Translations under genes and position numbers: made by a program
Shown here: piece after piece, positions 16,025-31,344 of the stretch
How the letters are laid out: each line of letters opens with the position of its first letter
Position numbering within the stretch: the first letter of the stretch is position 1
Notes under the pieces: model-generated
What the model was told of the DNA's origin: nothing
What the model saw: only the letters and a program-made list of their open reading frames with translations
Databases searched by the model: none
IMG/VR virus record: IMGVR_UViG_3300012952_000019
Span: 1 to 64,000 of that record
From: a virus
Lineage: Duplodnaviria; Caudoviricetes
Length of the DNA: 64,000 nt
Reading direction: 5' to 3' (one strand)

Positions 16025-16551
16025 TAAACGTAGTTAAACAAGCTATTAGTAAAGATACTTGTGAAGTATTATCTCAGAGTATGGAACTTATGAGAGTGAT
16101 GATGGGCAACCCACCTGACCCTACCATTAATAATGCTTTTGGATATTATTCGCCAGTATTCTTAGAGAGTTTAATGTTGTATATGCAACCAAAGATAGAG
16201 AAAAAAGTTGGTAAGAAATTATATCCAACATACTCTTATGGTAGGATATATGGACATGGATCAGTTTTAGAAAGACATACAGATAGACCAAGTGGTGAAT
16301 ACGGTGTCACCTGTTGTTTAGAAAAAGAATGTAAGTATCCTATATTTTTTGAACGTGATGGACATAATATACAAATAGAATTAGGTGTAGGAGATATATG
16401 CATATACAAAGGCATAGACTATCCCCATTGGAGAGAACCATATCAAGGTACTAGACACATTCAAGTATTTCTCATGTATGTTGATAGTAAAGGATTGTAT
16501 CAGGATTGGAAGTGGGACAAGAGACCGAGCTTATGCCAACCACCAAACTGA
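16021..16551 (+). CDS. 2OG-Fe(II) oxygenase
   Basis: LYPTYSYGRIY..G..L.RHTDRPS.E...GD..IYKG...HWRE...QVF. Confidence 0.85.
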   Translation: MINVVKQAISKDTCEVLSQSMELMRVMMGNPPDPTINNAFGYYSPVFLESLMLYMQPKIEKKVGKKLYPTYSYGRIYGHGSVLERHTDRPSGEYGVTCCLEKECKYPIFFERDGHNIQIELGVGDICIYKGIDYPHWREPYQGTRHIQVFLMYVDSKGLYQDWKWDKRPSLCQPPN

Positions 16552-16589
16552 CCCCAAGAGCTTCACAAATAGAAAATATGTGATAGAAT
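16532..16589 (+). promoter_or_regulatory. degenerate palindrome plus early promoter (copy 1)
   Basis: TATGCCAA-N8-CTGACCCC, then TTCACA and TAGAAT at 16584 (28 nt after the palindrome). Confidence 0.45.
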
Positions 16590-16611
16590 ATATAAGACCA
16601 CATACATTATC

Positions 16612-16857
16612 ATGCCAAGATTTATTTTAACAGCCACAGATGCTGACGGGACGACCACGACCAAAACTTTCGATTCAGAATTTTTGGGAGAGATCGTAGA
16701 AAAGACTGATGACTTCTTACGAGGAGTAGGATTTGTCTATGAAGATCTTAGTGTTAAGTATAGTGACGACAATACTATTCCTAACATAAGGACAGGAAAA
16801 CCTGAGTCAATCTACAGGGATAACATTCATGACAATTCCAATATTGGTATCGAATAA
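16612..16857 (+). CDS. hypothetical protein
   Basis: 81-aa ORF directly after the promoter. Confidence 0.7.
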   Translation: MPRFILTATDADGTTTTKTFDSEFLGEIVEKTDDFLRGVGFVYEDLSVKYSDDNTIPNIRTGKPESIYRDNIHDNSNIGIE

Positions 16858-16932
16858 CACATCATATTCGATGCAGTTCTCATATTATGAGACTATATAA
16901 AATGTAGTTCAAAGTTGTTTTTTTATTAAGAC

Positions 16933-17109
16933 ATGGGCAAAACTTTTAGACGAGGCGGTAGTGAGTACGGTAACAACAGTTATGGTAAATCATTACGAGA
17001 CAAACGTTCAAGAGGAAGCAAACGTTACTTTAAGGAGGATTCAAATGGAGGACAAAAAGTCCAAAGAAAATATGAATACACCGAAGAAGACGGACGTAAT
17101 AGAGGATGA
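16933..17109 (+). CDS. small basic Arg/Gly-rich hypothetical protein (58 aa, not in ORF track)
   Basis: MGKTFRRGGSEYGNNSYGKSLRDKRSRGSKRYF...; ATG 16933 to TGA 17107-17109. Confidence 0.6.
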   Translation: MGKTFRRGGSEYGNNSYGKSLRDKRSRGSKRYFKEDSNGGQKVQRKYEYTEEDGRNRG

Positions 17110-17185
17110 ACTTGACGATGATGGACTGGACTATGAAGATGGTTACTATTCATCAATGGATATAGAATACACAAACGAATACTAA
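17045..17185 (+). CDS. small acidic hypothetical protein
   Basis: Strong SD (AAGGAGG) before ATG 17045, in the frame of track ORF 16961. Confidence 0.5.
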   Translation: MEDKKSKENMNTPKKTDVIEDELDDDGLDYEDGYYSSMDIEYTNEY

Positions 17186-17186
17186 A

Positions 17187-17435
17187 ATGATCGGCAAAGA
17201 AACCCCCGAAATTAAGTATGATCGAGCATTAACTCTATTTGAAGAGTCAGTATTACAACCTGACTCTAAACTTAGAGGTTGTGCATATAATCAAGGATGT
17301 TTTGATGAACTCATGGAGATCAGAGAACACGTTTTAGATTATCTTAAAACTTTGAGAGAGGTCACTCGTCACACTAATGCTGACGAGAGTGACGATATTG
17401 AAACTGCCAAGTTACAAACAATGAAATCAAAGTGA
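17187..17435 (+). CDS. hypothetical protein
   Basis: 82-aa ORF packed between neighbours. Confidence 0.7.
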   Translation: MIGKETPEIKYDRALTLFEESVLQPDSKLRGCAYNQGCFDELMEIREHVLDYLKTLREVTRHTNADESDDIETAKLQTMKSK

Positions 17436-17632
17436 TCGGACTTAACTCAGCAATTTTAACAACAGATCAAAAACTCATCGTCAAAGATTCTTTGATGATG
17501 TATGTCTGTTCTCTACAGAAACAATACTTTAGAGACGGAAATTTATCGTCAGTAGAATATCTCAAACGAATGAAAGAGATAGAGATTGTTGCTGACCAAT
17601 TACATTTAAAGGAACTTTACAAACATGGATGA
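17432..17632 (+). CDS. hypothetical protein
   Basis: GTGA overlap with the upstream stop. Confidence 0.6.
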   Translation: MIGLNSAILTTDQKLIVKDSLMMYVCSLQKQYFRDGNLSSVEYLKRMKEIEIVADQLHLKELYKHG

Positions 17633-17810
17633 ACCCACAGACTTATATCAAGATATGGAAAAACTCAATATGTTATATGAAGAGTTGATGTGGGATAATG
17701 ATGATGTTTTAGACTTTACACCTGATTATAAACATGATAGAATTATAATCACTAATATCTCTCAAAGGAGTAGGAGAATTAAACATGGTAAAGATTTAGA
17801 TGCATTATGA
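17625..17810 (+). CDS. hypothetical protein
   Basis: 61 aa; SD AAGGA. Confidence 0.6.
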   Translation: MDEPTDLYQDMEKLNMLYEELMWDNDDVLDFTPDYKHDRIIITNISQRSRRIKHGKDLDAL

Positions 17811-17980
17811 AATACCATTTGTACGACACTAACGAAAGACATCAAGGAACTTTTGAGTCTGTTTATGATCTTAGAAAATTCTTATGCGACAGAAAGTATG
17901 ATGAGAATTGTGATAAGGACATAGGTTGTACATTTGATTATATTAAATCTATAAAATGGTTTTTTGAAATAGAAGAATGA
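17807..17980 (+). CDS. hypothetical protein (57 aa, not in track)
   Basis: MKYHLYDTNERHQGTFESVYDLRKFLCDRKY...; ATGA overlaps at both ends. Confidence 0.7.
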   Translation: MKYHLYDTNERHQGTFESVYDLRKFLCDRKYDENCDKDIGCTFDYIKSIKWFFEIEE

Positions 17981-18597
17981 TTGAACACTTTAATCCAAAG
18001 TGGTATTTCAAGGACACACTCACAGATATAGATCAACAGCAGATAGATGACTGGTTTGCTGAATTATATACTGATGCAGAAGGATTTGGAATACCAAAAG
18101 ACTGGCAGAAATTATGTAGAGTAACATCTACAGATAGAAAGACTGATGGTAATCCCATATGGGAAGACTATTTAAAATTACTTAAACCTTATCACGATAA
18201 GTTTCTAAGTGAGATAGAGACATACTGGGATGCAGAATTAATATGTGATAACGTATGGGTCAACAGATATACAGAAGGAGATTTCCAAGAGGTTCATAAC
18301 CATTGCCATCCCGACTATAATATTGCTATGGTATATTTTCATAAGTGTCATGGTTCACAGTTTCATTTTTTTGATTCATCATGGACAGAGTATAGATCAA
18401 GCGGACTAGATCAGATAATGGATGTGGTAGGAGAAGAGATAGTACAACTAGAGATAGATCAGGGAGATATAATTATGTTCCCAACTAACTATCCTCATTT
18501 CGTATCGCCTAATATGAAAGAGGAACTAAGGATAACGTTTGCAGGTAACTTTAAACTACAAAGAAAAGCTATGACACTTGGAGAAGTGACCATATAA
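17977..18597 (+). CDS. 2OG-Fe(II) oxygenase, TIGR02466-like
   Basis: WVNRY..GDFQEVHNH, GDIIMFP..YPHFV, RITFAGN. Confidence 0.85.
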   Translation: MIEHFNPKWYFKDTLTDIDQQQIDDWFAELYTDAEGFGIPKDWQKLCRVTSTDRKTDGNPIWEDYLKLLKPYHDKFLSEIETYWDAELICDNVWVNRYTEGDFQEVHNHCHPDYNIAMVYFHKCHGSQFHFFDSSWTEYRSSGLDQIMDVVGEEIVQLEIDQGDIIMFPTNYPHFVSPNMKEELRITFAGNFKLQRKAMTLGEVTI

Positions 18598-18626
18598 GTG
18601 ACATACTGGTAATAGTGTGGTATACT
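18570..18626 (+). promoter_or_regulatory. palindrome plus early promoter (copy 2)
   Basis: TATGACAC-N8-GTGACCAT; GTGACA-17-TATACT with TG extension (-10 at 18621). Confidence 0.6.
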
Positions 18627-18648
18627 AGTATCATAGTTAAAGAGATCA

Positions 18649-19101
18649 ATGAAACTCAGACCTCAAATCGAACTCAACAAAACATACACTTATGAGTGTG
18701 ATGCTACATTTGGCACACTATCACAAGAGAAAGTTAATAAGTTATTTACTGATGGCAGAAGAGCATCTGGATTTCTTGAGATTCAATTAGAAGAGTGGTT
18801 TCCTAATCTTACATTTGTAGATGGTAAAGGTTATGACCACGTTGATACAGATGGACTCAAGTATGATGCAAAATGTTTTACCAGAGGTGGTTCAAAGTTT
18901 TGTTCATCAAAGTATTTGGGTGTAGGTAGATCATTAAATGTTGAAGAGCATGAAGCACACGCAGAAAATATTATCTACATTTTTACAGATGTGGTAGAAT
19001 TTCCAAAGGTTCAAGTTAGATTTGTAAAAGGTTCTGATTTAATCCAGACTTATAAAAAAGGTTCCATTCCATTCTCACATAGAAATGCTTTATTTGGATG
19101 A
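18649..19101 (+). CDS. putative PD-(D/E)xK restriction-like endonuclease
   Basis: E...KGYDHVD...KYDAKC pattern; overlaps the downstream methyltransferase gene. Confidence 0.5.
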   Translation: MKLRPQIELNKTYTYECDATFGTLSQEKVNKLFTDGRRASGFLEIQLEEWFPNLTFVDGKGYDHVDTDGLKYDAKCFTRGGSKFCSSKYLGVGRSLNVEEHEAHAENIIYIFTDVVEFPKVQVRFVKGSDLIQTYKKGSIPFSHRNALFG

Positions 19102-19870
19102 TTGTATTACAGGGATGCAGAAACTAGATGAGAAATCAGTTGATGCAGTTGTAACATCCCCACCATACAACTTAAATATTAAATACAGTAAATATAACGA
19201 TAAGAAACCAGTAGATCAATATCTATCATGGTTAGGAGACGTATTTACTGAATGTAAACGTGTACTTAAAGATGATGGTCATCTATTTGTTAACATGGGA
19301 TATTCTAATGTTAATCCTACAATAGGTATAGATGTATGTTGTAAGTTAAGAGAGAATTATATACTACAGAATAATATTGCATGGATTAAAAGTGTTCATA
19401 CTGATAAGACACATGGACATTTTAAACCTATCAATAGTAAGAGATTCTTATGCCCAACATGGGAACATCTATTTCATTTTACAAAAGATGGTAAGATAGA
19501 GATCGATAGATTATCAGTTGGAGTGAAGTATGAATACTATGAAGCAAACATTCGTGGTAATAATACTAAGGACAATAAACCTAACTTAAGAGACAAAGGT
19601 AACTCATGGTTTATACCATACGAAACCAGACAAAGTAAACTAGAGAAAGGTAACCACCCCGCTATTTTTCCAGTTAAACTTGTAGAGGATTGTATTAAAC
19701 TTACTGGTAAAAGTAGTGGTATTGTTTTAGACCCATTCATGGGAACTGGAACTACAGGAGTAGCAGCAGTTAACTTAGGATGGGATTATATTGGATATGA
19801 TATAGATGAAGACTATGTTAAGTATTCTAAACAAAGATTAGAAGGGGGATTGAAATCATTATTAAAATGA
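19085..19870 (+). CDS. DNA methyltransferase, beta class (N4-C/N6-A)
   Basis: VTSPPY (motif IV) before HPAIFP and LDPFMGTGTT (motif I). Confidence 0.93.
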   Translation: MLYLDDCITGMQKLDEKSVDAVVTSPPYNLNIKYSKYNDKKPVDQYLSWLGDVFTECKRVLKDDGHLFVNMGYSNVNPTIGIDVCCKLRENYILQNNIAWIKSVHTDKTHGHFKPINSKRFLCPTWEHLFHFTKDGKIEIDRLSVGVKYEYYEANIRGNNTKDNKPNLRDKGNSWFIPYETRQSKLEKGNHPAIFPVKLVEDCIKLTGKSSGIVLDPFMGTGTTGVAAVNLGWDYIGYDIDEDYVKYSKQRLEGGLKSLLK

Positions 19871-19878
19871 TATATAAT
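19850..19878 (+). promoter_or_regulatory. sigma70-like promoter
   Basis: TTGAAA-17-TATAAT. Confidence 0.65.
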
Positions 19879-19952
19879 AATGAACAACGTAATTCATGTG
19901 GAGACACACCAGTCAAGCAGGATTACAAAACGTATAACAACGGAGAAAAGAC

Positions 19953-21068
19953 ATGACACAACAATTAGTTGTGGGAGTATGGTATGAATTACCAGGAATT
20001 CCTAATGTAGTTATTTGTTTGATGAAAACAGATAATTTTTTAATGTACCCAGAGTGGATAACACAAAGAGATACAGAACTTAGATCAAAGAAGAAATCTA
20101 CAATAGATCATTTAAGAGTATTATTTCCTACTCATCATGTAGTAGCAGCAGGAGAGTTGACAGAAGATGATGTATGGGAAGATGGAACAGAATACGAAGC
20201 AGGAACAGAGTGGAGACTCGATGCTAATACTAGATCATATCTATGGGAGACTGGTCAAACAAATCAGTTACCAGAAAATGTATTAGTTGTCAAGTATTGT
20301 GAACCAACACTAGTAAAGTTAAGAAGAACTTACTGGACATTTGATAATCCCTCAGCAGCAGAAGTAGCAGCAGAAGTTGTAACAGGATGTCAAAAGTCAC
20401 TAGGTATGAACTTGAAAACTAAGAAGTTTCAAGAAGGACAATACGTTACAGCATTATCATACCTATGTAAATATGATGACCCTGATACTTATGGAGACAA
20501 AGGACTATGGTCAGAGACTGACGATAAGACTATAACTCAAAGTGAGTATCGTAGGACTAAGATGCAGAATGCTATTATGCAATATAAAGATAATATTATT
20601 GCAGTTGATGATCTCTTAAATGAGACAAAATACAATAAGCATTTCGATCAATGTTTTATGGTTGCACTATTCTTACATCATGTTAAATTTGGTTATTGGG
20701 AAAAGAGTGTAGTAAACTTATTAAAGTTAATTACAGAAGAATTAAAAGATGAGTTCGATGACCCAATACAAATACCAATGGCAACTAAAGGTAAATTAAA
20801 TGCTACTGGATGGATACAAAGAGAAAATACCAACTATGGTAACGGTAGAAAATGGATACCAGATAGAGGTAAGATGGATGGATTTGGTCAAGGCGTACCA
20901 TTCTTTAGTTATTGGTTAGCAATACAAAAAGAGAAAGGTATGAAGCACAAACAAAATTGTGGTGCAAAGCAAGGTTATCCTCAATGGTTTAAGGAGTTCT
21001 TAAAGATGCCTAATAGATCACATGAGTTAAATGATCTCAAAAGCAAAATCCTAACAGATTTTGACTAG
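19953..21068 (+). CDS. hypothetical protein, possible ParB/Srx-like N-terminal domain
   Basis: 371 aa; QRD...RLDANTR resembles the DGxxR motif of ParB-like domains; SD GGAG. Confidence 0.6.
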   Translation: MTQQLVVGVWYELPGIPNVVICLMKTDNFLMYPEWITQRDTELRSKKKSTIDHLRVLFPTHHVVAAGELTEDDVWEDGTEYEAGTEWRLDANTRSYLWETGQTNQLPENVLVVKYCEPTLVKLRRTYWTFDNPSAAEVAAEVVTGCQKSLGMNLKTKKFQEGQYVTALSYLCKYDDPDTYGDKGLWSETDDKTITQSEYRRTKMQNAIMQYKDNIIAVDDLLNETKYNKHFDQCFMVALFLHHVKFGYWEKSVVNLLKLITEELKDEFDDPIQIPMATKGKLNATGWIQRENTNYGNGRKWIPDRGKMDGFGQGVPFFSYWLAIQKEKGMKHKQNCGAKQGYPQWFKEFLKMPNRSHELNDLKSKILTDFD

Positions 21069-21094: not shown

Positions 21095-21099
21095 AAGTT

Positions 21100-22119: not shown

Positions 22120-22203
22120 ATGAATAACATAGGTTTAGAAGTTGTATTCTGGACAGTATTAACAATTTATCTCTTAAATAAGTTGGGAGTCTTTAAAAAA
22201 TGA
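22120..22203 (+). CDS. 27-aa single-TM micropeptide
   Basis: MNNIGLEVVFWTVLTIYLLNKLGVFKK; downstream of the promoter; ATGA overlap with the methyltransferase. Confidence 0.55.
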   Translation: MNNIGLEVVFWTVLTIYLLNKLGVFKK

Positions 22204-23324
22204 AGGACACTATATTATTTGGAGATTGTAAGGAAACTTTGAGTGCATTTCTACCTCAAAGTGCTAGAACTTGCGTGACATCCCCACCTTATTATGGACT
22301 TAGGGATTATGGCACAGCAACATGGATAGGGGGAGACCCTAATTGTAACCATAGGAGAGATAGTAAAGTCAAACCTGAGAATTGTAATACAGGACATAAG
22401 AATCACGATGAAATGTATGGAGTAGGGGATGCAATATATAAAACTGTTTGCCCGAAGTGTGGTGCAATAAGACAAGATAGTCAAATAGGACTAGAAGAAA
22501 CACCAGAAGAATATATTGAAAGTCTTGTAGATGTATTTCGTAGTGTCAGGGATGTTTTAACTGACGATGGTACTTTATGGGTTAATTTAGGAGATAGTTA
22601 TTATAACTATAGACCTGGTAAAGGTCAGTCATATCCTAAACAGTCAGTAAGTAAGACTAAGCAAGACCTACCTGATAAATGTAATAAACGTGGTAACAAA
22701 TTAGATGGATTAAAAGAGAAAGATTTAATTGGAATACCTTGGATGTTTGCGTTTGCTATGCGTAAAGATGGATGGTATTTAAGACAAGATATTATCTGGC
22801 ATAAACCTAATCCAATGCCAGAAAGTGTAAAAGATAGATGTACTAAATCACATGAGTATATCTTTTTATTCAGTAAAAACAGAAAGTATTTTTATGACAA
22901 TGAATCAATCAAAGAACCAGTCAAACAAGACTGGGGAACAAGAGACCGCACAAAAGGTAAGTATCATAATATTGGTAGTGGCTTACAACCTCATAGTGGT
23001 CTTACCAAGTCTTATGACAGGAAGAATAAACGATCTGTTTGGTCAGTAACAGTTAAACCATATAAGGAAGCACATTTTGCTACTTATCCACCTGACTTAA
23101 TTGAACCTTGCATTAAAGCAGGGAGTGAAGAAGGAGATACAATACTTGACCCATTCATGGGTGCAGGAACTACAGCGGCAGTTGCAAAGTCACTTAATCG
23201 TTATTATATTGGGTGTGAACTCAATGAAGATTATGGTAACTTAATTCAGAAAAGAATTGATGATTATCAACCAATTAAACAAGTGTCACAAAATGGGTTG
23301 ACTGATCTTATGAGTGGAGTATAA
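22200..23324 (+). CDS. DNA methyltransferase, beta class, with Cys/His-rich insertion
   Basis: TSPPY, IIWHKPNPMPESVKDR, HFATYP, LDPFMGAGTT; insertion with C.H...CPKC. Confidence 0.93.
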   Translation: MKDTILFGDCKETLSAFLPQSARTCVTSPPYYGLRDYGTATWIGGDPNCNHRRDSKVKPENCNTGHKNHDEMYGVGDAIYKTVCPKCGAIRQDSQIGLEETPEEYIESLVDVFRSVRDVLTDDGTLWVNLGDSYYNYRPGKGQSYPKQSVSKTKQDLPDKCNKRGNKLDGLKEKDLIGIPWMFAFAMRKDGWYLRQDIIWHKPNPMPESVKDRCTKSHEYIFLFSKNRKYFYDNESIKEPVKQDWGTRDRTKGKYHNIGSGLQPHSGLTKSYDRKNKRSVWSVTVKPYKEAHFATYPPDLIEPCIKAGSEEGDTILDPFMGAGTTAAVAKSLNRYYIGCELNEDYGNLIQKRIDDYQPIKQVSQNGLTDLMSGV

Positions 23325-23325
23325 T
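23267..23325 (+). promoter_or_regulatory. palindrome plus early promoter (copy 3)
   Basis: TCAACCAA-N8-GTGTCACA; TTGACT-16-TATAAT (23320). Confidence 0.65.
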
Positions 23326-23350: not shown

Positions 23351-23563
23351 TTGACTACACTCGCACCAAAACCAACTCGTAAGAGAAGGACACGCAAAGC
23401 ACCGATAAATAGGACAGCAGTCACTAAACAAATGGAAGTGGTCATCACACCAGACCATATAACACTAAACAAACAAATCAAAAGACTAGATACATTTACG
23501 CTAGTCATACTTCCATTTTTATATCTTGAAGCATTTGTGAAACTGATACTACGAGTCAAGTGA
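23351..23563 (+). CDS. basic hypothetical protein with hydrophobic C-terminus
   Basis: TTG start after the promoter; KPTRKRRTRK. Confidence 0.6.
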   Translation: MTTLAPKPTRKRRTRKAPINRTAVTKQMEVVITPDHITLNKQIKRLDTFTLVILPFLYLEAFVKLILRVK

Positions 23564-23616
23564 CACTCACACAACTGTACACCCCTCTTAACAGAGGGGT
23601 TTTTTTATGCTATACT
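23559..23616 (+). promoter_or_regulatory. palindrome plus terminator hairpin plus -10 (copy 4)
   Basis: AGTGACAC-N8-CTGTACAC; ACCCCTCT-TAAC-AGAGGGGT plus T-run (23581-23606); TGCTATACT (-10 at 23611). Confidence 0.7.
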
Positions 23617-23637: not shown

Positions 23638-24885
23638 ATGTTCTTATTGAAAAAGCATCAAGATTATGCATACATGAAGATGCTAGACAATAAAAAAGGA
23701 CAAGTGATTGTGCCTACTGGTGGTGGTAAAACATATATTATGATTGCTGATGCTATTAGAAACAACTATCAACAGTATCAGAAATCTGATAATATTAATG
23801 TTGTAGTAGCACCTCGTATATTACTAGCACAACAGTTATGCAATGATTTTACAGATCATATTGAAGCATTTGATGATATTATTCATGTTCACTCAGGAGA
23901 TACAGAATATTACAGCACAACTTCAGCAGAAGACTTAAAGTTATGGTATTTAACTTCAAATAATATATCAAATAGAATTATATTTACAACTTATCACTCA
24001 TTACATCGTATTGTTGAGAGTGGCATTCCTATCAATACAGTATATTTTGATGAAGCACACAACTCATGTGGTAAGAAGTTTTTTGAAGCAGTAAAATCAA
24101 TATCTAATATATCAAATAGATGTTATTTCTTTACAGCAACACCTAAGCAAGGAAGAGGTCAGACTATTGAGCGTGGTATGAATAACGATAAAGTTTATGG
24201 TAACGTTATTGCTAATGTTGATGCCAAGGAATTGATAGATGCAGGTATTATATTACCACCTAAAGTAATACCATTTGATACTAACAGGAAAAGAAACAAA
24301 GTTAATGCTCATGAAGTTGATGCTAAGAACTTAAAAGATATTCTAGAGGATACAGTAGAGGATGATTCAAAAGTACTTGTAGCAGCACCTAGCACAAGAA
24401 TATTATGGAATATGCTCACAAAAACTGATATACTTGACTGGTTTAAAAAACAGAACTATGGAGTTATGCATATTACATCTAAGCATGGTGCATACGTTGA
24501 TGGTAAGAAAGTCCGCAGGGATGTATTCTTTAATACTCTTAATGAGTGGGGTAAAAGTGCTAAGAAATTTGTTGTGTTTCATTATAGTATATTATCTGAA
24601 GGTATTAACGTAGCAGGATTAACTCATACAGTATTACTACGCAATTTGCCTGTTATTGAAATGGCACAAACAATAGGTAGAGTAATTAGAGTGCATCCTG
24701 ATGATAGAAAGTCAGTTGATGATGGTATTATACCAGTAGCACAATTCTCACTATATCGCAAGGGATATGGTAGAGTAACAGTTCCCTTAAGTGGTAAGTA
24801 TGGAGAGAAGATTGCTAAAAGACTTGAGTCAGTAGTTAATCAAATCTTTATAGAAGGAATACCACCAATAGCGTGGACATCATAG
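23638..24885 (+). CDS. SF2 DEAH helicase (type III restriction Res-like)
   Basis: PTGGGKT, APRILL, TTYHS, DEAH, TAT, LSEGIN, QTIGRVIR. Confidence 0.9.
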   Translation: MFLLKKHQDYAYMKMLDNKKGQVIVPTGGGKTYIMIADAIRNNYQQYQKSDNINVVVAPRILLAQQLCNDFTDHIEAFDDIIHVHSGDTEYYSTTSAEDLKLWYLTSNNISNRIIFTTYHSLHRIVESGIPINTVYFDEAHNSCGKKFFEAVKSISNISNRCYFFTATPKQGRGQTIERGMNNDKVYGNVIANVDAKELIDAGIILPPKVIPFDTNRKRNKVNAHEVDAKNLKDILEDTVEDDSKVLVAAPSTRILWNMLTKTDILDWFKKQNYGVMHITSKHGAYVDGKKVRRDVFFNTLNEWGKSAKKFVVFHYSILSEGINVAGLTHTVLLRNLPVIEMAQTIGRVIRVHPDDRKSVDDGIIPVAQFSLYRKGYGRVTVPLSGKYGEKIAKRLESVVNQIFIEGIPPIAWTS

Positions 24886-24945
24886 GACAGTTCAACAAAG
24901 TGGCACACAGTACTACCATTATGGTATCAAATACAGTATTATAAT
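24883..24945 (+). promoter_or_regulatory. palindrome plus early promoter (copy 5)
   Basis: TAGGACAG-N9-GTGGCACA starting at the helicase stop; TATAAT at 24940. Confidence 0.75.
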
Positions 24946-24969
24946 AATATGAACAACAGCAAGAGGAAC

Positions 24970-25194
24970 ATGATTCATTCAATGCACTTCGGAAGAGTTT
25001 TTTGGTTAAACCTCGATAATGAACTGATGTCAGCACCTTGGTTAAAGGATGGCACAGTTTTAGATGGAACATTTGGAACTGAAGATCAATCTGATTATGT
25101 TAGTGAGTGGACTGACCTCGAAGGTCTTAACATGGATGCACTTTTAAACATTCATAGAGACTTGATTATTGCATCACTAGGAGATCAAAAATGA
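24970..25194 (+). CDS. hypothetical early protein
   Basis: SD AGAGG before ATG 24970; the track start at 24949 is too close to the -10 box. Confidence 0.7.
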   Translation: MIHSMHFGRVFWLNLDNELMSAPWLKDGTVLDGTFGTEDQSDYVSEWTDLEGLNMDALLNIHRDLIIASLGDQK

Positions 25195-25334
25195 ATCAAG
25201 ACATTCAAATCAATGTCACATTTGATGAAAAGTATCAATTTGACAAACTTTATGACATTTTGAGAGATATGGATTTTCCACTCACAAATAAACAACATAA
25301 TGTATTTGAAAAAATCTTAACAGGAAACAACTAA
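25191..25334 (+). CDS. hypothetical early protein (47 aa, not in track)
   Basis: SD AGGAG; MNQDIQINVTFDEKYQF... Confidence 0.65.
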   Translation: MNQDIQINVTFDEKYQFDKLYDILRDMDFPLTNKQHNVFEKILTGNN

Positions 25335-25549
25335 TGAAAACAGCAGTATTTCAAGTAAGGATTGAAGCAACACCCGATGCAGAAATCAATCCATTTCATT
25401 TAGCAGAAGAGATACAGGCATATCTCAATGCTCATGTATGTGCAGTCAATGAGACTACTGATACATACGAGGATGTTAGAGTAACAGGTTACAAATTTGA
25501 TTACGATAACTTCACACCTACCCAATTTGATTACGATCAGGAATTTTAA
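25334..25549 (+). CDS. hypothetical early protein
   Basis: 71 aa; TAATG overlap. Confidence 0.7.
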   Translation: MKTAVFQVRIEATPDAEINPFHLAEEIQAYLNAHVCAVNETTDTYEDVRVTGYKFDYDNFTPTQFDYDQEF

Positions 25550-25551
25550 TT

Positions 25552-25692
25552 ATGCAAAACGTCCCATTTTACGATTTTCCATCAAGTCCAATTTTAATTA
25601 TTGGATTCTTTGGAATACTAACAGCACTATTAGTATTATTTGTTGCTAATAGATCATACTTCTCTAGTCCATTCAATGAGGATAACAAGTAA
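25552..25692 (+). CDS. small single-TM protein (46 aa, not in track)
   Basis: MQNVPFYDFPSSPILIIGFFGILTALLVLFVANRSYFSSPFN. Confidence 0.65.
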   Translation: MQNVPFYDFPSSPILIIGFFGILTALLVLFVANRSYFSSPFNEDNK

Positions 25693-25925
25693 TGGAAAAG
25701 CATCTTAATTTATGGCAAGTAATACCAGAAGATGAGCATAACCATATTTCTAACAAGATATGGGAAGCACTTGATAGAGCAGGAATTGTATGCTCTCAAG
25801 ATGCTGAACTATCAATAAAGATATATGATGAAGAGTTAAAGATCACAAAACGTGACCCATTTGGAATTGAGTCAGTTACTGATGATGATTATGACTCAGA
25901 AGGCGAATTAATCTATGAAGCATAG
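25692..25925 (+). CDS. hypothetical early protein
   Basis: 77 aa; SD GAGG. Confidence 0.7.
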   Translation: MEKHLNLWQVIPEDEHNHISNKIWEALDRAGIVCSQDAELSIKIYDEELKITKRDPFGIESVTDDDYDSEGELIYEA

Positions 25926-25981
25926 GACAGTACATTATGTGTCACACTCTACCACGCATAGGTTATAAAATGCCTTATACT
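25923..25981 (+). promoter_or_regulatory. palindrome plus early promoter (copy 6)
   Basis: TAGGACAG-N8-GTGTCACA; TATACT at 25976 (29 nt gap). Confidence 0.75.
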
Positions 25982-26060
25982 AAAGACATCAAGGTTAATG
26001 CTAACATTCACAAGTGCTTAGGGATACCTTTAACCTTGATTCCATTTCTTAATAAAGATC

Positions 26061-26201
26061 ATGAGAACTTTAAAACTTGATGAAAAGCAGAATGAAACAC
26101 TTAAAGCAATGATTAAGTATTTCTATGAAATTAAAATCAATCCAAAATATCAAGAAGGATTTTCAGCATTGTATGACAACTTTCAAGATCAGGGAGAGTA
26201 A
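26061..26201 (+). CDS. hypothetical early protein (46 aa, not in track)
   Basis: MRTLKLDEKQNETLKAMIKYF... Confidence 0.6.
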   Translation: MRTLKLDEKQNETLKAMIKYFYEIKINPKYQEGFSALYDNFQDQGE

Positions 26202-26203
26202 TT

Positions 26204-26371
26204 ATGCCACTAATTAAACTATCAATCGAAGAGCATCAATCACTCACTAGATTTTTAAGTCATCCTAAAGCAATGAAATATAGGAGTGACTTATATGACA
26301 CAGAAACTTTTGACTCAATGGAAGATAAAGTTTATGATGCAGTAAACAATTTAACAGTAGAGGATTTTTAA
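26204..26371 (+). CDS. hypothetical early protein (55 aa, not in track)
   Basis: SD GGAG; MPLIKLSIEEHQSL... Confidence 0.65.
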   Translation: MPLIKLSIEEHQSLTRFLSHPKAMKYRSDLYDTETFDSMEDKVYDAVNNLTVEDF

Positions 26372-26536
26372 ATGCCTAACGTATTAACAACAAGAGAAAA
26401 GACCATTATCAAACTTATGGAAATGGTTATTGATACACTTAAGTATTGTGATGACCTATCTGACCCCGCATTTTCAATGTATGACGTTATGAAGGATGCA
26501 GTAGAGAAGGAAGTCCGCTATCCTATGGAGTTTTAA
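26372..26536 (+). CDS. hypothetical early protein (54 aa, not in track)
   Basis: SD GAGG; MPNVLTTREKTIIKLM... Confidence 0.65.
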   Translation: MPNVLTTREKTIIKLMEMVIDTLKYCDDLSDPAFSMYDVMKDAVEKEVRYPMEF

Positions 26537-26537
26537 A

Positions 26538-26798
26538 ATGAACTTAAATGACAAGTTAAAGCAAGAGAGAACTGGACTAACCGCACAACAGTATAGTGAC
26601 TTGCAAGAGTTATTTGTTGATCGTTATGTTGACAATATGACTACTAAAGACTTAGTAGAATATGTTTATAACGATATGATGCAGTATGTTGAGAATCAAC
26701 CAGAAAAGGAATTTTTGGATGACTGTAAGGACTACTGGGATGATGGATTCCAGGAAATTATTGAAGAAATTAAGGAGATTTCAAATGAAAACAATTAA
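26538..26798 (+). CDS. hypothetical early protein
   Basis: 86 aa acidic helical ORF; SD GGAG. Confidence 0.75.
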   Translation: MNLNDKLKQERTGLTAQQYSDLQELFVDRYVDNMTTKDLVEYVYNDMMQYVENQPEKEFLDDCKDYWDDGFQEIIEEIKEISNENN

Positions 26799-26952
26799 AT
26801 TAAATGATGACCAATTCGAGACTCTATACAATTTCGTAAATGAACGTGTAGAGGATGTAGTAGAAAGATCAATCCAATATCAAGATACTGAAATTCTTGA
26901 AGACTGGGAAGATTTATTAGATGTTCACACTATTTTGGAAATAGCAAAATGA
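26785..26952 (+). CDS. hypothetical early protein
   Basis: SD AAGGAG before ATG 26785 (MKTIKLNDDQFETL...). Confidence 0.7.
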   Translation: MKTIKLNDDQFETLYNFVNERVEDVVERSIQYQDTEILEDWEDLLDVHTILEIAK

Positions 26953-27122
26953 GTCAACACAAAGTCAATTTATCAGATAAAGAAATTACTAGAGTATGTG
27001 ATCTCTTAGATGAGCAACACGACCTAGACAAGAAATTATCTAATAAGTTAAACAACATATTGATTAAGCATTTAGCACTAATTGATAATAATAGAGCAAA
27101 ACAACCAATCGGAGAGTGGTAA
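26949..27122 (+). CDS. hypothetical early protein (57 aa, not in track)
   Basis: ATGA overlap; stop directly abuts palindrome copy 7. Confidence 0.65.
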   Translation: MSQHKVNLSDKEITRVCDLLDEQHDLDKKLSNKLNNILIKHLALIDNNRAKQPIGEW

Positions 27123-27183
27123 TGTACCAGTTAAACAAAGTGGCACAATGGGTATTGTGTTTCGCAGTAGTCTCGACTATACT
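27123..27183 (+). promoter_or_regulatory. palindrome plus early promoter (copy 7)
   Basis: TGTACCAG-N9-GTGGCACA; TATACT at 27178. Confidence 0.75.
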
Positions 27184-27207
27184 TAATTCATAAGTTACAA
27201 ATCAAAC

Positions 27208-27621
27208 ATGACTGTTAAATCTCTCAACTTTCAAGCAGGTAGTTCAGCAAAGGCAGAATACAGAAAACTTGACACTTATCAGAAATTAGTAGTAAATGCT
27301 ATTACAACTTATGGTAGTGGTAGTTGGAAAAATAACGTATCAGTCCATCATAAGCACGACCAGAGTCAATTTTCAAATATACTAATTGGTTCAGAAGTAG
27401 TTGCTAAAGTAGTTTACGAAACAGCACACGATGATATTTCTATAGAGGATTATAGAGATATTCATTTACATAAGTGTCTTTTAGCAAGTGTATCATATAT
27501 TGCATTTGGTCAGGATACAGATAATTACAGAGATTCACATCAAGTTGTAAGATATAGAAATATGCTCAAAAGGATGGGATTCACAATAATAAATGTAGCA
27601 AACAAGTGCATCCAGTATTAA
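27208..27621 (+). CDS. hypothetical early protein
   Basis: 137-aa single-gene cassette between two palindromes. Confidence 0.75.
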   Translation: MTVKSLNFQAGSSAKAEYRKLDTYQKLVVNAITTYGSGSWKNNVSVHHKHDQSQFSNILIGSEVVAKVVYETAHDDISIEDYRDIHLHKCLLASVSYIAFGQDTDNYRDSHQVVRYRNMLKRMGFTIINVANKCIQY

Positions 27622-27633
27622 GTCAAGTGATCT

Positions 27634-27692
27634 TGTGCCACTTTTATTAGTGGCACATAGTACCACTATTACCAGTAAAAATGGACTATACT
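27634..27692 (+). promoter_or_regulatory. palindrome plus early promoter (copy 8, perfect IR)
   Basis: TGTGCCAC-N8-GTGGCACA; TATACT at 27687. Confidence 0.85.
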
Positions 27693-27717
27693 TATTACAT
27701 AAGCAACTAAAGGACTT

Positions 27718-27864
27718 ATGACTAACTCTCAAAGATACAAAGCATTCCTTAGATGGGATGCAATGATTCAAAGACAACAGGCAAGAAAAGCAGGAAAAAC
27801 ACTTTCTCAACTTCATGCAGATAAGTGGTTCGATTCAAATTTCAAATTCATAGGAGACAACTAA
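27718..27864 (+). CDS. basic hypothetical early protein (48 aa, not in track)
   Basis: SD AAGGA; MTNSQRYKAFLRWDAMIQRQQARK... Confidence 0.65.
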   Translation: MTNSQRYKAFLRWDAMIQRQQARKAGKTLSQLHADKWFDSNFKFIGDN

Positions 27865-27865
27865 A

Positions 27866-28117
27866 ATGCACAACTTTAAAGAATTTCTTGATTATTGCGA
27901 ATCATTCTATAACCCTAGTCATCCTGACGTTTTATATCCTATCGATGGATTAACTAGGGAAGAGTTAGCACTTGCAACTTTAAACTATTTGGACTTATGT
28001 GCGACTAGTGAGAACATTACATGGGGAGACGGAGATTCACTAGATCGTGAGAGAGTCAGAGATTTTGTAATACAGAGGAGAGCAACAGAGCAAACAGCAT
28101 CAAAATTAGGATTTTAA
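27866..28117 (+). CDS. hypothetical early protein
   Basis: SD AGGAG; F.DYC.SFY...LYPI...WGDGDSLDRERVR. Confidence 0.75.
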   Translation: MHNFKEFLDYCESFYNPSHPDVLYPIDGLTREELALATLNYLDLCATSENITWGDGDSLDRERVRDFVIQRRATEQTASKLGF

Positions 28118-28120
28118 ATT

Positions 28121-28318
28121 ATGTTTCTAGTTACCAATATCGAAGTTTACGAAAATCTTGACGAGGACATTCAGTTTAAAATTGATAATGGTCTCGGTCT
28201 ATGGTCATCTAAAGACCATCAAATTGGGGAAGATGTAAGAAAATATATGTTACCTTATACTCTCAGAAAAGTAGAGTATGAAAAAAATAAACCACACAAA
28301 TTAACTTCTTTCAAGTAG
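28121..28318 (+). CDS. hypothetical early protein
   Basis: 65 aa; SD AGGA. Confidence 0.65.
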   Translation: MFLVTNIEVYENLDEDIQFKIDNGLGLWSSKDHQIGEDVRKYMLPYTLRKVEYEKNKPHKLTSFK

Positions 28319-28321
28319 TAC

Positions 28322-28380
28322 TGTGACAGTTTAATTACTGTCACACAGTATCACTATTATCCCTTAAAATCGATTATACT
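28322..28380 (+). promoter_or_regulatory. palindrome plus early promoter (copy 9, perfect IR)
   Basis: TGTGACAG-N8-CTGTCACA; TATACT at 28375; TATACTTATTACATAAGCAAC identical to copy 8. Confidence 0.85.
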
Positions 28381-28404
28381 TATTACATAAGCAACAAAGG
28401 AATT

Positions 28405-28875
28405 ATGACTAATCCAACTATCGAAGCACTAGTCCCAAACTGGACAGCAGATTATTGCGAAGCATTAACTCAAAATTACTTCAATTATCACGTTAGTTCA
28501 TTAAAGACTAACTCAGAGCGTTTTTCAAAACCTAACGGTAGTGTATTAGGTCATCGTCCAGATTTATCAGAATATGCGAAGTCACAACTAGCAGAAATTG
28601 AAAACGGAACAGCGAAGTTAATGAAGTTTAGAGCAATCGAAGGTAAGAAGTATTACAAAGTAGTTCAGCAAGAATGGGATGAAGATAGACAAGAATACAG
28701 AGACAGATCAGTAAATAGTTTTGTTGACAAGAAAACAGGCGAAGTATATAAAGCATCAAGTTGGAAGGCACCCGCAAAGGGAGTGAGATTTGATATGAGA
28801 ATCATCAATCAAAGAAATTTGATGCATAACCCAAATTATGTTGACTGGGCAAGTGGTCATCTTTACATACGATAG
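28405..28875 (+). CDS. conserved phage early protein
   Basis: KYYKVV...SV.SFVDKKTGEVYKA.SWKAPAKGVR motif of a widespread phage family of unknown function. Confidence 0.8.
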   Translation: MTNPTIEALVPNWTADYCEALTQNYFNYHVSSLKTNSERFSKPNGSVLGHRPDLSEYAKSQLAEIENGTAKLMKFRAIEGKKYYKVVQQEWDEDRQEYRDRSVNSFVDKKTGEVYKASSWKAPAKGVRFDMRIINQRNLMHNPNYVDWASGHLYIR

Positions 28876-28886
28876 GAGGTTAAAAC

Positions 28887-29042
28887 GTGGTTAAAATTGA
28901 AACCAAACATCACATAGTAGAATTTCACACTAAGAAGGATTCCAGGAAATTCTTAAAGAAAATCTACAAAAAAGGAATAACTCTCGATTATTATCTTTGG
29001 GAGTTTGACCTTACCACAGAATTATACGAAATAGGGGAGTAG
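28887..29042 (+). CDS. hypothetical early protein (51 aa, GTG start, not in track)
   Basis: SD AGGAGG; stop abuts palindrome copy 10. Confidence 0.65.
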   Translation: MVKIETKHHIVEFHTKKDSRKFLKKIYKKGITLDYYLWEFDLTTELYEIGE

Positions 29043-29101
29043 TGTGCCAGTACTTTTAGTGGCACAAAACTCTTTACAAGTATAGCAAAATGAACTATAC
29101 T
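29043..29101 (+). promoter_or_regulatory. palindrome plus early promoter (copy 10)
   Basis: TGTGCCAG-N8-GTGGCACA; TTTACA-17-TATACT (29096). Confidence 0.85.
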
Positions 29102-29126
29102 TATAATATAAGCAACAGAGAACTAA

Positions 29127-29357
29127 ATGAACTCAACAGCAACTTACACAGAACCAGTTAACAGAATCAAGCAGAAAGTTCTATTTGATTTTAACCTAGA
29201 TGCACTTTCATGCATATGTCATGACTGGGAAGATTTTACTATTGAAATCGCAGAGTGGGGAATCTACAAGTTAGCAGGAGTTGATTTTGATACATTAACT
29301 AAATCTGACATTGCTAGACTAGACCAGTTCATACACAATCAAAACGGAGGAGTATAA
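29127..29357 (+). CDS. hypothetical early protein
   Basis: 76 aa, first gene after the promoter. Confidence 0.7.
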   Translation: MNSTATYTEPVNRIKQKVLFDFNLDALSCICHDWEDFTIEIAEWGIYKLAGVDFDTLTKSDIARLDQFIHNQNGGV

Positions 29358-29359
29358 AA

Positions 29360-29542
29360 ATGAGTTGCATTCAAAACGAAACTATCCTAGAAAATCTTTA
29401 TGATGAAGTATGGGAAGAGTATAGAAAAGAGAACAATTTGACACTAGATCAAATGTATCACTTAGAGCAAGATGAAAATTCTGGTATTATGTCAATGCTA
29501 GGAGATCAAGCAACCGCACGTTTTGAGGACTTAATTCAATGA
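29360..29542 (+). CDS. hypothetical early protein
   Basis: SD GGAGG; MSC.QNE.ILE.LYDE...A.ARFED. Confidence 0.7.
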   Translation: MSCIQNETILENLYDEVWEEYRKENNLTLDQMYHLEQDENSGIMSMLGDQATARFEDLIQ

Positions 29543-29673
29543 ATAAAGACCTCTATGCAGAAATCGTAAAAGTTTACGAATCTACTGACGAAATCGAATC
29601 GACTGTAGCATTTGAATTTGGACTTAAAAACGATCTTTACTATTCACTTTTTCATTCCTATCAGGAGGACTAA
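29539..29673 (+). CDS. hypothetical protein (44 aa, not in track)
   Basis: ATGA overlap; SD GAGG. Confidence 0.6.
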   Translation: MNKDLYAEIVKVYESTDEIESTVAFEFGLKNDLYYSLFHSYQED

Positions 29674-29676
29674 CCG

Positions 29677-29841
29677 ATGACCAGAGCAGAATATGAGTTA
29701 TTATACTCAGCATTTAAAAGTTATAGACCATTTATGACGGATGCAGAGGAAGTGATGAGCGAGAAAATTCTTGATGACATTTTCTATCCATCATTTGATG
29801 CACTTAAAAATGTATCTGAACCAGAATTGCCAGTAGTATGA
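29677..29841 (+). CDS. hypothetical protein (54 aa, not in track)
   Basis: SD AGGAGG; MTRAEYELLYSAF... Confidence 0.65.
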   Translation: MTRAEYELLYSAFKSYRPFMTDAEEVMSEKILDDIFYPSFDALKNVSEPELPVV

Positions 29842-30053
29842 AAAACTACGATAAGAAAAACTCTAAAGAGAGAACATACAAGAGTTTTGAACAAATCGGT
29901 ATAGGAGACACCGTACGATATTTTAAAGAATATGGTCAAATCATCCTACGTCTAGATGAAACTAGGCAAGTTTATCTCACTAACGATAAACACTATATGC
30001 TTCCAATTAACTGGAAGAAAACTAAAGTAATTTCACTTATTAATGAGGATTAA
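29838..30053 (+). CDS. hypothetical protein
   Basis: ATGA overlap; IGDTVRY SH3/KOW-like start. Confidence 0.6.
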   Translation: MKNYDKKNSKERTYKSFEQIGIGDTVRYFKEYGQIILRLDETRQVYLTNDKHYMLPINWKKTKVISLINED

Positions 30054-30058
30054 CTAAA

Positions 30059-30283
30059 ATGAATCAACAGGAATTTATGACCGAAGTCTTAAGCGATTAT
30101 TGTGTAGTTGAAAAATTGCCCTTTATGTCAGCATCCGATATTTTGGTTATGTATCGCAGTATTCTTACAGAATCTCAAAGGGAGTGGTTACGCAATTATA
30201 TTGAGATCTGGGATATAATAGAAGAGAATGAAAACCAATCTAATGGAAGTGTGGATGCTCGCCCGATTTTTTCCTCTATATAA
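30059..30283 (+). CDS. hypothetical protein
   Basis: SD GAGG; 74 aa. Confidence 0.65.
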   Translation: MNQQEFMTEVLSDYCVVEKLPFMSASDILVMYRSILTESQREWLRNYIEIWDIIEENENQSNGSVDARPIFSSI

Positions 30284-30300
30284 AGTGTATAAACAGAATA

Positions 30301-30540
30301 ATGTCAACACACTTTCAATTAATTCCTTGGACTGAATTATGCCACGCTATTGACATGATAAGGTATGAAGAGGAAAATAAAGCAACTATGACTTATGAAC
30401 AGTTACAAAAGTTCCTGGAAACCCTAACACCAGAGCAATTAAAAAACGAGGTAGTCATATACGATAAGGATGTTGAGGACTATTGCAAAGCGGATGCAAA
30501 TTTGATAATCAAAAATGACAAAATTTACATAGGCATTTAA
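30301..30540 (+). CDS. hypothetical protein (may start at the internal MTYEQL)
   Basis: MTY.QL..FL..LTPEQL...V.IYD motif. Confidence 0.6.
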   Translation: MSTHFQLIPWTELCHAIDMIRYEEENKATMTYEQLQKFLETLTPEQLKNEVVIYDKDVEDYCKADANLIIKNDKIYIGI

Positions 30541-30544
30541 TCGT

Positions 30545-30793
30545 ATGACTCTCGACTATTACAACTTTATGAAAGGAGAACTAATAGAAGTAAAAAACGA
30601 TATAGGGAGAATAAATTTTATATGCGAAGAATACATAACAGTAACAACAAAGCATGAAAAGAACGATACATATAAGAAAGGATATAAAGAGACTAACGTA
30701 GTAGTAAGCAAGGCATATTGGAAAGAAATTAAATTCATTACAAGAGAACAACTATACAAAGTAACCAATAATGAACAACAGAGAGAACAATAA
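30545..30793 (+). CDS. hypothetical protein
   Basis: F.KGE.I....GRINFICEEYITV; strongly A-rich DNA. Confidence 0.6.
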   Translation: MTLDYYNFMKGELIEVKNDIGRINFICEEYITVTTKHEKNDTYKKGYKETNVVVSKAYWKEIKFITREQLYKVTNNEQQREQ

Positions 30794-30953
30794 ACCAATA
30801 CTTATGAAAACGTCCGCAGATAAGATAAAATACACTTTCACGGTACTCAAGTATATCATAATAGACTTATGGGAGTCAATAAGAATAAACAAATATTATC
30901 GGAAATCATTACCAGATGAATCAATATCGAAACCAAAAGAGGATATTAATTAA
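30771..30953 (+). CDS. hypothetical protein
   Basis: 60-aa ORF in the track; no motif recognised. Confidence 0.4.
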   Translation: MNNRENNKPILMKTSADKIKYTFTVLKYIIIDLWESIRINKYYRKSLPDESISKPKEDIN

Positions 30954-31011
30954 TATTAAAATAAATTAGGTAGTGTTGTTGTTATCGTTATTAATATGCG
31001 ATCTTAATACG

Positions 31012-31040
31012 GTCTTAGCGTGTAAATACATAAACGTCAA
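31012..31040 (-). promoter_or_regulatory. candidate minus-strand promoter
   Basis: Reverse complement TTGACG-17-TAAGAC, back to back with the plus-strand promoter. Confidence 0.4.
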
Positions 31041-31065
31041 GCATCTCTCATAAATCTTAACAAAC

Positions 31066-31094
31066 TTGACAGGCACAGAGATTTATGCCATAAT
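31066..31094 (+). promoter_or_regulatory. sigma70-like promoter
   Basis: TTGACA-17-CATAAT with TG extension. Confidence 0.7.
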
Positions 31095-31118
31095 AAGGTA
31101 TAACAGAAGTATGCCCAG

Positions 31119-31301
31119 TTGCCTATGATTTTACCAGGAAAGTTTAAAAGACTTGCCGAGGGTTATCCAAATTTAAAAAATACTGAACTTGTTGAATACT
31201 TCCAATTTCTTTTAGATACGGAACAGGTCACGGAGGAGACTCGGAGACATGTAGATTATTTTTTAATGGAAGGATTTTTGTACTATGTGCCAGTTGCATA
31301 A
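31119..31301 (+). CDS. hypothetical protein
   Basis: 60 aa after the promoter (ATG at 31125 is an alternative start). Confidence 0.6.
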   Translation: MPMILPGKFKRLAEGYPNLKNTELVEYFQFLLDTEQVTEETRRHVDYFLMEGFLYYVPVA

Positions 31302-31344
31302 GTGTCCACTAAGGGGTGCACACAGGTAACCAAAGGCTTATAAT
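31286..31344 (+). promoter_or_regulatory. palindrome plus early promoter (copy 11)
   Basis: TGTGCCAG-N8-GTGTCCAC; TATAAT at 31339 (29 nt gap). Confidence 0.75.

Follow-up and report, generated by a model that had tools for sequence, protein, structure and literature searches.

The window analyzed here, a stretch of 64,000 nucleotides from the viral record IMGVR_UViG_3300012952_000019, represents the first two thirds of a 94.5-kb contig of a T4-like cyanomyovirus (53% complete according to the estimate given in the record) and carries an array of palindromic promoter elements, called dyads in the following, in front of small genes. The best DNA matches of the contig, which are patchy and at ~83% identity, were to myoviruses of Prochlorococcus and Synechococcus, among them P-RSM4, S-TIM4, and P-SSM4. 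Upstream, the promoter array is bordered by a block made up of paralogous 2OG-Fe(II) oxygenases together with two DNA methylases (12.5–23.3 kb), downstream by gp25 and gp6 of the baseplate (34.5 kb). The array region itself holds a helicase gene (23638–24882) and ~35 small open reading frames (ORFs), every one of them located on the + strand. Since 26 out of 36 small ORFs match PHROG families of unknown function, these are genuine phage genes with no role assigned. The gene order in this region is the same as that of the phage Syn9 at 44–60 kb, and scans of the window for Rfam families and tRNAs gave no match. Via the helicase protein three relatives were found, referred to as L384, L385 (95 and 97% amino acid identity, respectively), and L386 (67%).

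The initial annotation of this stretch had counted eleven palindrome-promoter elements with the consensus TGTG(A/C)CA(G/C)-N8/9-(G/C)TG(G/T)CACA. Scoring the mismatches to this consensus and comparing the outcome with shuffled sequences revealed that eleven is an over-count: about eight copies are credible, all of them situated between 23.2 and 31.3 kb, one is ambiguous (18570) and two are unsupported (16532 and 23559; Table 1). Exact matches were found at three positions (27634, 28322, and 29043) and not once in 100 shuffles. Allowing up to two mismatches, four sites with a spacer of 8 nucleotides (nt; N8) and two with a spacer of 9 nt (N9) were obtained, adding 24883, 25923, and 27123 to the exact ones, so that six sites stand against ~0.5 by chance (shuffle means of 0.27 for N8 and 0.20 for N9). 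At up to four mismatches the whole 94-kb contig yields 73 matches per strand, which is noise, and the consensus thus did not hold for the copies at 16532 and 23559. Two of the credible copies deviate more strongly. The one at 23267, which overlaps the 3′ end of a methyltransferase gene (22200–23324), has four mismatches, its counterpart in L384 only two. The one at 31286 has three, is identical in L384 and L385, and its right arm GTGTCCAC recurs in copies of Syn9. Also identical in these two relatives is the dyad at 24883, whose first three nt coincide with the helicase stop codon. At the place corresponding to the ambiguous position 18570, the more distant L386 carries a dyad with one mismatch. 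All three weak copies (16532, 18570, and 23559) come with a -35 and a TG-extended -10 (at 16562, 18598, and 23588 in the consensus scan). Those at 16532 and 23559 look like ordinary sigma70-type promoters, which 18570 resembles as well while staying ambiguous. The unit of terminator and promoter at 23559–23616, which precedes the helicase gene and is conserved in L384 and L385, does look, by its sequence, like a classical promoter-early stem-loop cassette (PeSL).

Table 1. Dyad promoters and further promoter-like elements of the array (window coordinates; nt, distance from dyad to -10).
Position	Strand	Assignment	Elements	ORFs headed
16532..16589	+	not a dyad (>4 mismatches)	sigma70-type promoter sequence TTCACA-16-TAGAAT with TG	
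18570..18626	+	ambiguous	left half-site alone, TATGACACTT; GTGACA as -35; TG-extended TATACT	
23267..23325	+	dyad promoter	weak left arm TCAACCAA, perfect right arm GTGTCACA; 29 nt; TATAAT at 23320–23325; TTGACT-16-TATAAT by consensus promoter scan	
23559..23616	+	not a dyad (>4 mismatches)	intrinsic terminator 23581–23600 plus T run, overlapping a TG-extended sigma70-type TTAACA-17-TATACT	
24883..24945	+	dyad promoter (2 mismatches)	TAGGACAG-N9-GTGGCACA; -10 TATTAT or TATAAT at 24937–24945	24949–25925
25923..25981	+	dyad promoter	TAGGACAG-N8-GTGTCACA; 29 nt; TATACT	
27123..27183	+	dyad promoter	TGTACCAG-N9-GTGGCACA; 30 nt; TATACT	cassette B (ORF 27208–27621)
27634..27692	+	dyad promoter, perfect	TGTGCCAC-N8-GTGGCACA; 29 nt; TATACT	27718–28318
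28322..28380	+	dyad promoter, perfect	TGTGACAG-N8-CTGTCACA; 29 nt; TATACT	28405–29042 (DUF7717 protein and 51-aa ORF)
29043..29101	+	dyad promoter	TGTGCCAG-N8-GTGGCACA; 29 nt; TATACT; -35 TTTACA	~10 small ORFs, 29127–30953
31286..31344	+	dyad promoter	variant right arm GTGTCCAC; 29 nt; TATAAT	31375–31605

The geometry of the copies is largely as first described. A TATACT/TATAAT-type box at a distance of 27–32 nt, mostly 29 nt, is present for all eleven positions. All eight credible copies have it 29–32 nt after the dyad, seven of them at 29 nt. Counted from the start of the left arm, the -10 follows after 53 nt in six of these eight and after 55–57 nt in both N9 copies. As claimed, the ORF map has the copies overlapping the previous stop codon or directly adjoining it, with the eighth copy starting 12 nt after it, and the extra sequence common to the eighth and ninth copies (27634 and 28322), CAGTAYCACTATTA, is present. 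It also proved correct that several copies lack a -35, a good one being found for only three of the eight (at 23298, 29073, and 31317). A generic sigma70 scan showed no enrichment of promoters in the array region (83 found, 85 expected), and among the RNA sequencing runs searched with the interval 24800–31500, none contained it.

For a broader view, IMG/VR was searched with the narrower pattern TGTGCCAS-N8/9-STGGCACA, and all figures given for this database cover the matches listed. The pattern occurs at 200 or more loci, with many contigs containing three to seven copies and up to seven copies lying within 6 kb. Among 206 N8 copies with sufficient flanking sequence, 153 possess a strong -10 on one side, and the distance between dyad and -10 peaks sharply (29 nt in 90 copies, 30 nt in 32, and 28 nt in 19). 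As the side was picked by the better -10, the presence of a -10 is biased by this procedure and the peak of the distance is not. The consensus of 121 strictly oriented copies reads TGTGCCAGTTGTnnAAGTGGCACA, which extends either arm to ten letters, TGTGMCAGTT. In these 121 copies, the 29-nt stretch leading from the dyad to the -10 is almost free of information, no column of the -35 region exceeds ~0.4 bit and TTG is found in the -35 window of 30 of them. The overall layout is thus TGTGMCAGTT-N4-AASTGKCACA, followed by 29–30 nt without a conserved -35 and by TATAAT, and it is the missing -35 in which the dyad module differs from the sigma70 promoters of the host. When 596 Gb of prokaryote genomes were scanned for the dyad, at least 121 matches were obtained, almost all of them in unrelated bacteria. 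One match (L268) comes from a metagenome-assembled genome (MAG) of Synechococcus, in which it is located on contig C1 of genome G001. This contig of 194 kb carries phage-type dyad promoters with four exact half-sites, is as large as the genome of a T4-like cyanophage, and probably represents phage DNA that was binned into the host MAG.

Arrays of the same kind exist in isolated phages. P-TIM40 has seven dyad copies at 48.9–55.0 kb, and Syn9 seven modules in the syntenic region, namely before gp61, 63, 68, 73, 75, 78, and 89/90, each in an intergenic gap. The Syn9 modules are located at 44774, 46289, 47204, 48558, 49078, 51000, and 52996. For exactly these two phages, an abstract by Doron et al. 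from 2016 is said to report a novel regulatory element of early genes that is conserved in T4-like cyanophages and in metagenomes. The genes behind the dyad modules of Syn9 and P-TIM40 are presumably the early genes of that study. Considering the distribution of the layout over at least 200 IMG/VR loci, that is, widely among environmental cyanophage contigs, and the arrays in the same small-gene region of the same phages, the dyad of the window is therefore very probably this element. This identification draws on what that abstract is reported to say and on the arrays in Syn9 and P-TIM40, a basis that has to be weighed against it. The dyad promoters themselves would then very probably belong to an already published promoter class of T4-like cyanophages, and the parts worth following are the candidate for the protein that reads them and the exchange of cassettes bounded by them.

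Instead of being bound by a protein, the palindrome could form a hairpin in RNA or single-stranded DNA and act as terminator or stabilizer of the upstream transcript, which would make it the stem-loop half of a true PeSL. The position of the copies at the very end of the preceding gene would suit such a role, as would the predicted folding of three of the eight window copies at -12 to -15 kcal/mol. The remaining five, however, fold at -5.2 kcal/mol or weaker, and no T run follows the palindrome in the window copies. Moreover, variable positions of the two arms pair less often than by chance: positions 8 and 17 are pairable in 68 of 208 distinct IMG/VR dyads (104 expected if independent), positions 5 and 20 in six of 17 orientable dyads taken from 79 helicase-anchored loci (8.6 expected). 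Relatives even combine arms of mixed type, e.g., TGTGCCAC...CTGTCACA. This pairing below chance points to a double-stranded site and not to a hairpin. Consequently, a hairpin or terminator function is regarded as very improbable, and the dyad is predicted to be a protein-binding site in double-stranded DNA.

PeSLs of T4-type coliphages were reportedly treated by Arbiol in 2010. According to a later account, they occur in T4-type coliphages and vibriophages and contain near-consensus sigma70 promoters (Comeau, 2014; PMC4122927). What the cyanophage modules share with them are the promoter units of ~70–100 bp, repeated within a hyperplastic stretch of small ORFs, and the indels and cassette moves that distinguish close relatives and have their junctions inside these units. 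In contrast to PeSLs, the upstream palindrome of the cyanophage modules is not selected as stem-loop or terminator, a true terminator being found only in the non-dyad unit at 23559–23616, and the promoters mostly do without a -35 (good in three of the eight copies, conserved in none of the columns of the 121).

T4-like cyanophages do not possess Alt, Mod, MotA, and AsiA, the proteins by which T4 reprograms RNA polymerase (PMC2984593), which raises the question of who reads their early promoters. As the explanation that appears likely to us as a whole, the dyad would be the upstream half of a promoter class, presumably active early in infection, that precedes small genes in the variable region separating the baseplate genes from the 2OG-oxygenase/methylase block. 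A DNA-binding protein already present when the phage DNA enters the cell would most likely recruit or stabilize the host RNA polymerase there. The modules of ~90 bp, consisting of dyad, -10, and a common 5′ leader, are repeats and could for this reason double as homology patches, by which general recombination would move, delete, and exchange cassettes. The best candidate for the binding protein would be PlmA (PMM1637), a host regulator of the GntR family, because the phage arm equals the half-site of the host yfr2 promoters at the same distance from the -10.

This half-site was found in a host sample comprising the Synechococcus genome reached via L268 and 40 further genomes of its family. 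The RNA Cyano-1 (Yfr2) of Rfam was detected in 39 of the 41 genomes, and 30 yfr2 loci (90,245 nt) were fetched. The phage contig, for comparison, contains no Cyano-1/Yfr2 RNA according to the Rfam scan. With up to one mismatch, the phage half-site TGTGMCAGTT has 25 matches in the 30 loci, 19 of which, distributed over 13 loci, are located no more than 100 nt upstream of yfr2. On the promoter strand, ten matches start 58–70 nt before the RNA model, nine of these at -58 to -64. A -10-like hexamer follows 52–54 nt past the start of the half-site in eight of 15 host promoters, these 15 having been picked from the 30 for a visible half-site. Furthermore, the left arm of the copies at 24883 and 25923, TAGGACAGTT, also occurs in host yfr2 promoters.

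According to Lambrecht et al. (2018; PMC6191309), the yfr2 promoters of Prochlorococcus and marine Synechococcus contain CGRE1, a palindromic element responsive to PMM1637. In that study, the yfr2 promoter pulled down this protein, which also shifted CGRE1-bearing promoters and raised their reporter activity. An electrophoretic mobility shift assay and a GFP reporter in E. coli exist for it. In the genome of MED4, another study states, CGRE1 is found nowhere else (PMC6778093). The phage dyad resembles CGRE1 in the 10-nt half-site, in the left-arm form TAGGACAGTT, and in the distance to the -10 (52–54 nt in the host, mostly 53 nt in the phage). It differs in the arrangement: in hosts the half-sites are everted and abutting, which makes a palindrome of 21–22 nt, or a single one is present, whereas those of the phage face each other across 4–8 nt. 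In addition, the phage sites precede protein-coding genes and not yfr2. Domain searches found one GntR gene in host genome G001 and no GntR domain in the proteins of Syn9, P-TIM40, or this contig.

With the half-site and the register shared with promoters activated by PlmA, the fixed distance to the -10, the lack of a conserved -35, and the absence of hairpin co-variation, it is reasonable to read the dyad as the site of a dimeric activator, as had been proposed initially, with the binding itself standing as a prediction. A different function of the bound protein has to be considered. The dyad might be an operator for a regulator made by the phage, e.g., an early protein that shuts the promoters at the onset of middle transcription, with the -10 providing basal activity. 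Part of the -10 boxes are TG-extended (T at -3 with a frequency of 0.40 and G at -2 with 0.41 in the 121 oriented copies) and could work without an activator, and the dozens of small ORFs of unknown function in the region (the 26 out of 36 with PHROG matches mentioned above) could include such a regulator. Then again, the 31 larger proteins showed no DNA-binding domain, and the same half-site stands in the same register at host yfr2 promoters, where the bound protein activates (PMC6191309). An operator function is therefore considered unlikely, although it can coexist with activation by a host protein.

Several observations speak against PlmA as the reader and need to be set against the shared half-site. 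Scanning the host loci for the motif, a step suggested in the initial annotation, recovered the half-site in the same register but not the full dyad: none of the 30 loci contains a phage-type dyad at up to two mismatches. Conversely, the host arrangement CTGKCAC-N1-GTGMCAG, present in six host loci, is absent from the 94-kb phage contig, and a single symmetric dimer cannot make identical contacts to both arrangements. Nor is the exact 10-mer enriched across five host genomes (24 matches compared to 25 for the reversed control). Four of these 24 matches lie at yfr2 promoters and four on the phage-like MAG contig. Taking both sides together, PlmA might be regarded as a well-motivated candidate for the protein that reads the phage dyads, to which we would grant somewhat less than an even chance. 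In some marine Synechococcus (host loci L351, L354, L359, L370, and L383), a CGRE1-type palindrome lies at about -33 to -15 and replaces the -35, with a weak dyad-like element further upstream. The sequence CAGTAYCACTATTA of the window copies at 27634 and 28322 has a position similar to that of this palindrome.

Other known regulators were compared as well. CRP recognizes the consensus TGTGA-N6-TCACA; the arms of the dyad are 8 nt apart, so that TGTGA and TCACA would be separated by 14 nt. A -24 element of the sigma54 type was rejected, as cyanobacteria are not known to have sigma54. NtcA-type promoters of cyanophages carry the site GTA-N8-TAC, according to Sullivan et al. (2010; PMC3037559), and are an earlier example of cyanophage promoters relying on a host regulator of nutrient status. 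The dyad differs from them in its arms, which lie ~12 nt further upstream, and GTA-N8-TAC is found in none of the eight credible copies. A site of the NtcA or the CRP type was thus rejected.

PlmA is tied to the PipX-PII sensor of carbon, nitrogen, and energy. It is conceivable, though it has to be put forward with clear reservation, that the PlmA half-site is what T4-like cyanophages use to construct the promoters read first, in which case the nutrient and light state of the host would gate the onset of infection, and that the promoter modules serve as homology patches for cassette exchange. The half-site and register in common with the yfr2 promoters name one concrete host protein as possible reader. 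If this is true, the success of infection in the sea would depend, from its first step on, on the nitrogen and light status of the host, and promoters read by PlmA would stand beside the NtcA-type promoters proposed in earlier work (PMC3037559). Among the publications found by a literature search, the coverage of which did not include Doron et al. 2016, none links cyanophage promoters with PlmA, PMM1637, or CGRE1.

The second part of the preferred explanation, the exchange of cassettes at the modules, was addressed by comparing relatives for breakpoints at the motif, as had been recommended. In L385 the region is collinear apart from small replacements. The order of the cassettes differs in L384, where the B unit (27173–27707) is found between the genes G and H, gene D (27863–28119) follows directly after the 25923 promoter, and the promoter of 27123 is joined with the leader belonging to the 27634 unit. 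At either of its positions, cassette B is flanked by modules on both sides. Collinearity with both close relatives breaks at 25993, 12 nt past the -10 of the 25923 copy. Of the distinct alignment ends with L384 and L385 in the interval 22–35 kb, nine out of 25 fall into the eight modules, which make up 699 bp or 5.4% (binomial p 3.5e-6, or 0.0045 if ends are restricted to ~58 gene boundaries). The other 16 ends lie outside the modules, and the ends are not independent, that at 25993 being common to both relatives, of which there are only two close ones; these points limit the weight of the enrichment. An L384 promoter at 14250 is a mosaic consisting of the upstream flank of 29043, the middle of 27634, and the leader and gene of 27123. 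The crossover points are thus distributed along the module, not confined to one position in the palindrome core. A leader is common to the copies within each genome (CTATACTTATTACATAAGCAAC here, TATTCTATAAGAGTCAAAGGAA in Syn9), which fits repeated exchange among copies.

Contigs from four metagenome studies, compared with 24800–31500, gave 14 joints, and in eight of them one end or both fall into a module. These joints are weak and may reflect repeats or other phages, most of them having sides under 30 nt in repeated sequence. They include 28346 to 29125 (two studies) and ends at 27657, 28322 (twice), 28324, and 31338. A joint going back from 29799 to 26204 via 25 other letters was seen in contigs from two metagenome studies, with no module at the joint, and the gene 26204–26371 therefore stands in another context in related phages.

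The initial annotation had raised the idea that the dyad is a recombination site, with the palindrome as part of an integron-like array. A site-specific system of this kind, with 8-bp arms and an asymmetric 8-bp core, would account for cassette junctions in modules, and some metagenome contigs switch partner exactly at the edge of the palindrome (27657, 28322, and 28346, with short sides). Yet no tyrosine or serine recombinase (Phage_integrase, PF00589; Resolvase, PF00239) was found in this contig, 53% complete as it is, nor in the complete genomes of Syn9 and P-TIM40. The crossovers are, as the three-part mosaic promoter illustrates, not placed in the AT-rich core. The spacer is partly conserved (TT..AA) and symmetric, without a directional core, and every cassette has its own promoter. 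A site-specific recombination site is accordingly regarded as so improbable that it hardly enters into consideration. The integron-like array is not supported: for an attC/attI-type array, no dedicated tyrosine recombinase was found in these three genomes, and instead of promoterless cassettes read from one common promoter, each unit has a -10 box 29–30 nt past its dyad. What stands of the recombination proposal is its PeSL sense, with junctions within modules of ~90 bp. The comparison of relatives points to homologous recombination between repeated promoters as the probable mode of the cassette moves, as with the PeSLs of coliphages. For the cyanophage S-PM2, a PeSL mechanism was judged unlikely (PMC4503421). 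The cassette junctions show how the large pool of small genes of unknown function gets reshuffled in the most abundant marine myoviruses. If homologous exchange is indeed at work, the modules would be patches for the transfer of early-gene cassettes between co-infecting phages.

Besides the promoter array, further features of the window were noted. The 2OG-Fe(II) oxygenase paralogues at 12568–18597 and 32530–33138 (+) comprise at least six ORFs with Pfam matches and one DUF6445 protein, the run lying directly upstream of the array. Two adjacent genes of the tryptophan halogenase family (6940–8355 and 8345–10006, +; Pfam E-values 1e-88 and 3e-98) come after two glycine-rich-domain proteins. A small SET-domain protein (34187–34513, +; Pfam E-value 5e-07) is encoded just ahead of gp25. 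Right after gp6, a single ORF of 8035 aa extends from 36962 to 61069 (+). At the corresponding place Syn9 has gp101, an 18-kb gene annotated as 'virion structural protein, putative fiber'. Finally, at 31589–31645 (+), a GC hairpin with T run comes only a few nt after a perfect sigma70 consensus, TTGACA-17-TATAAT (12/12), and is in turn followed by 176 gene-free nt with repeated CCCCAG. This unit may give rise to a very short transcript or small RNA, or may represent a terminator overlapping a promoter.

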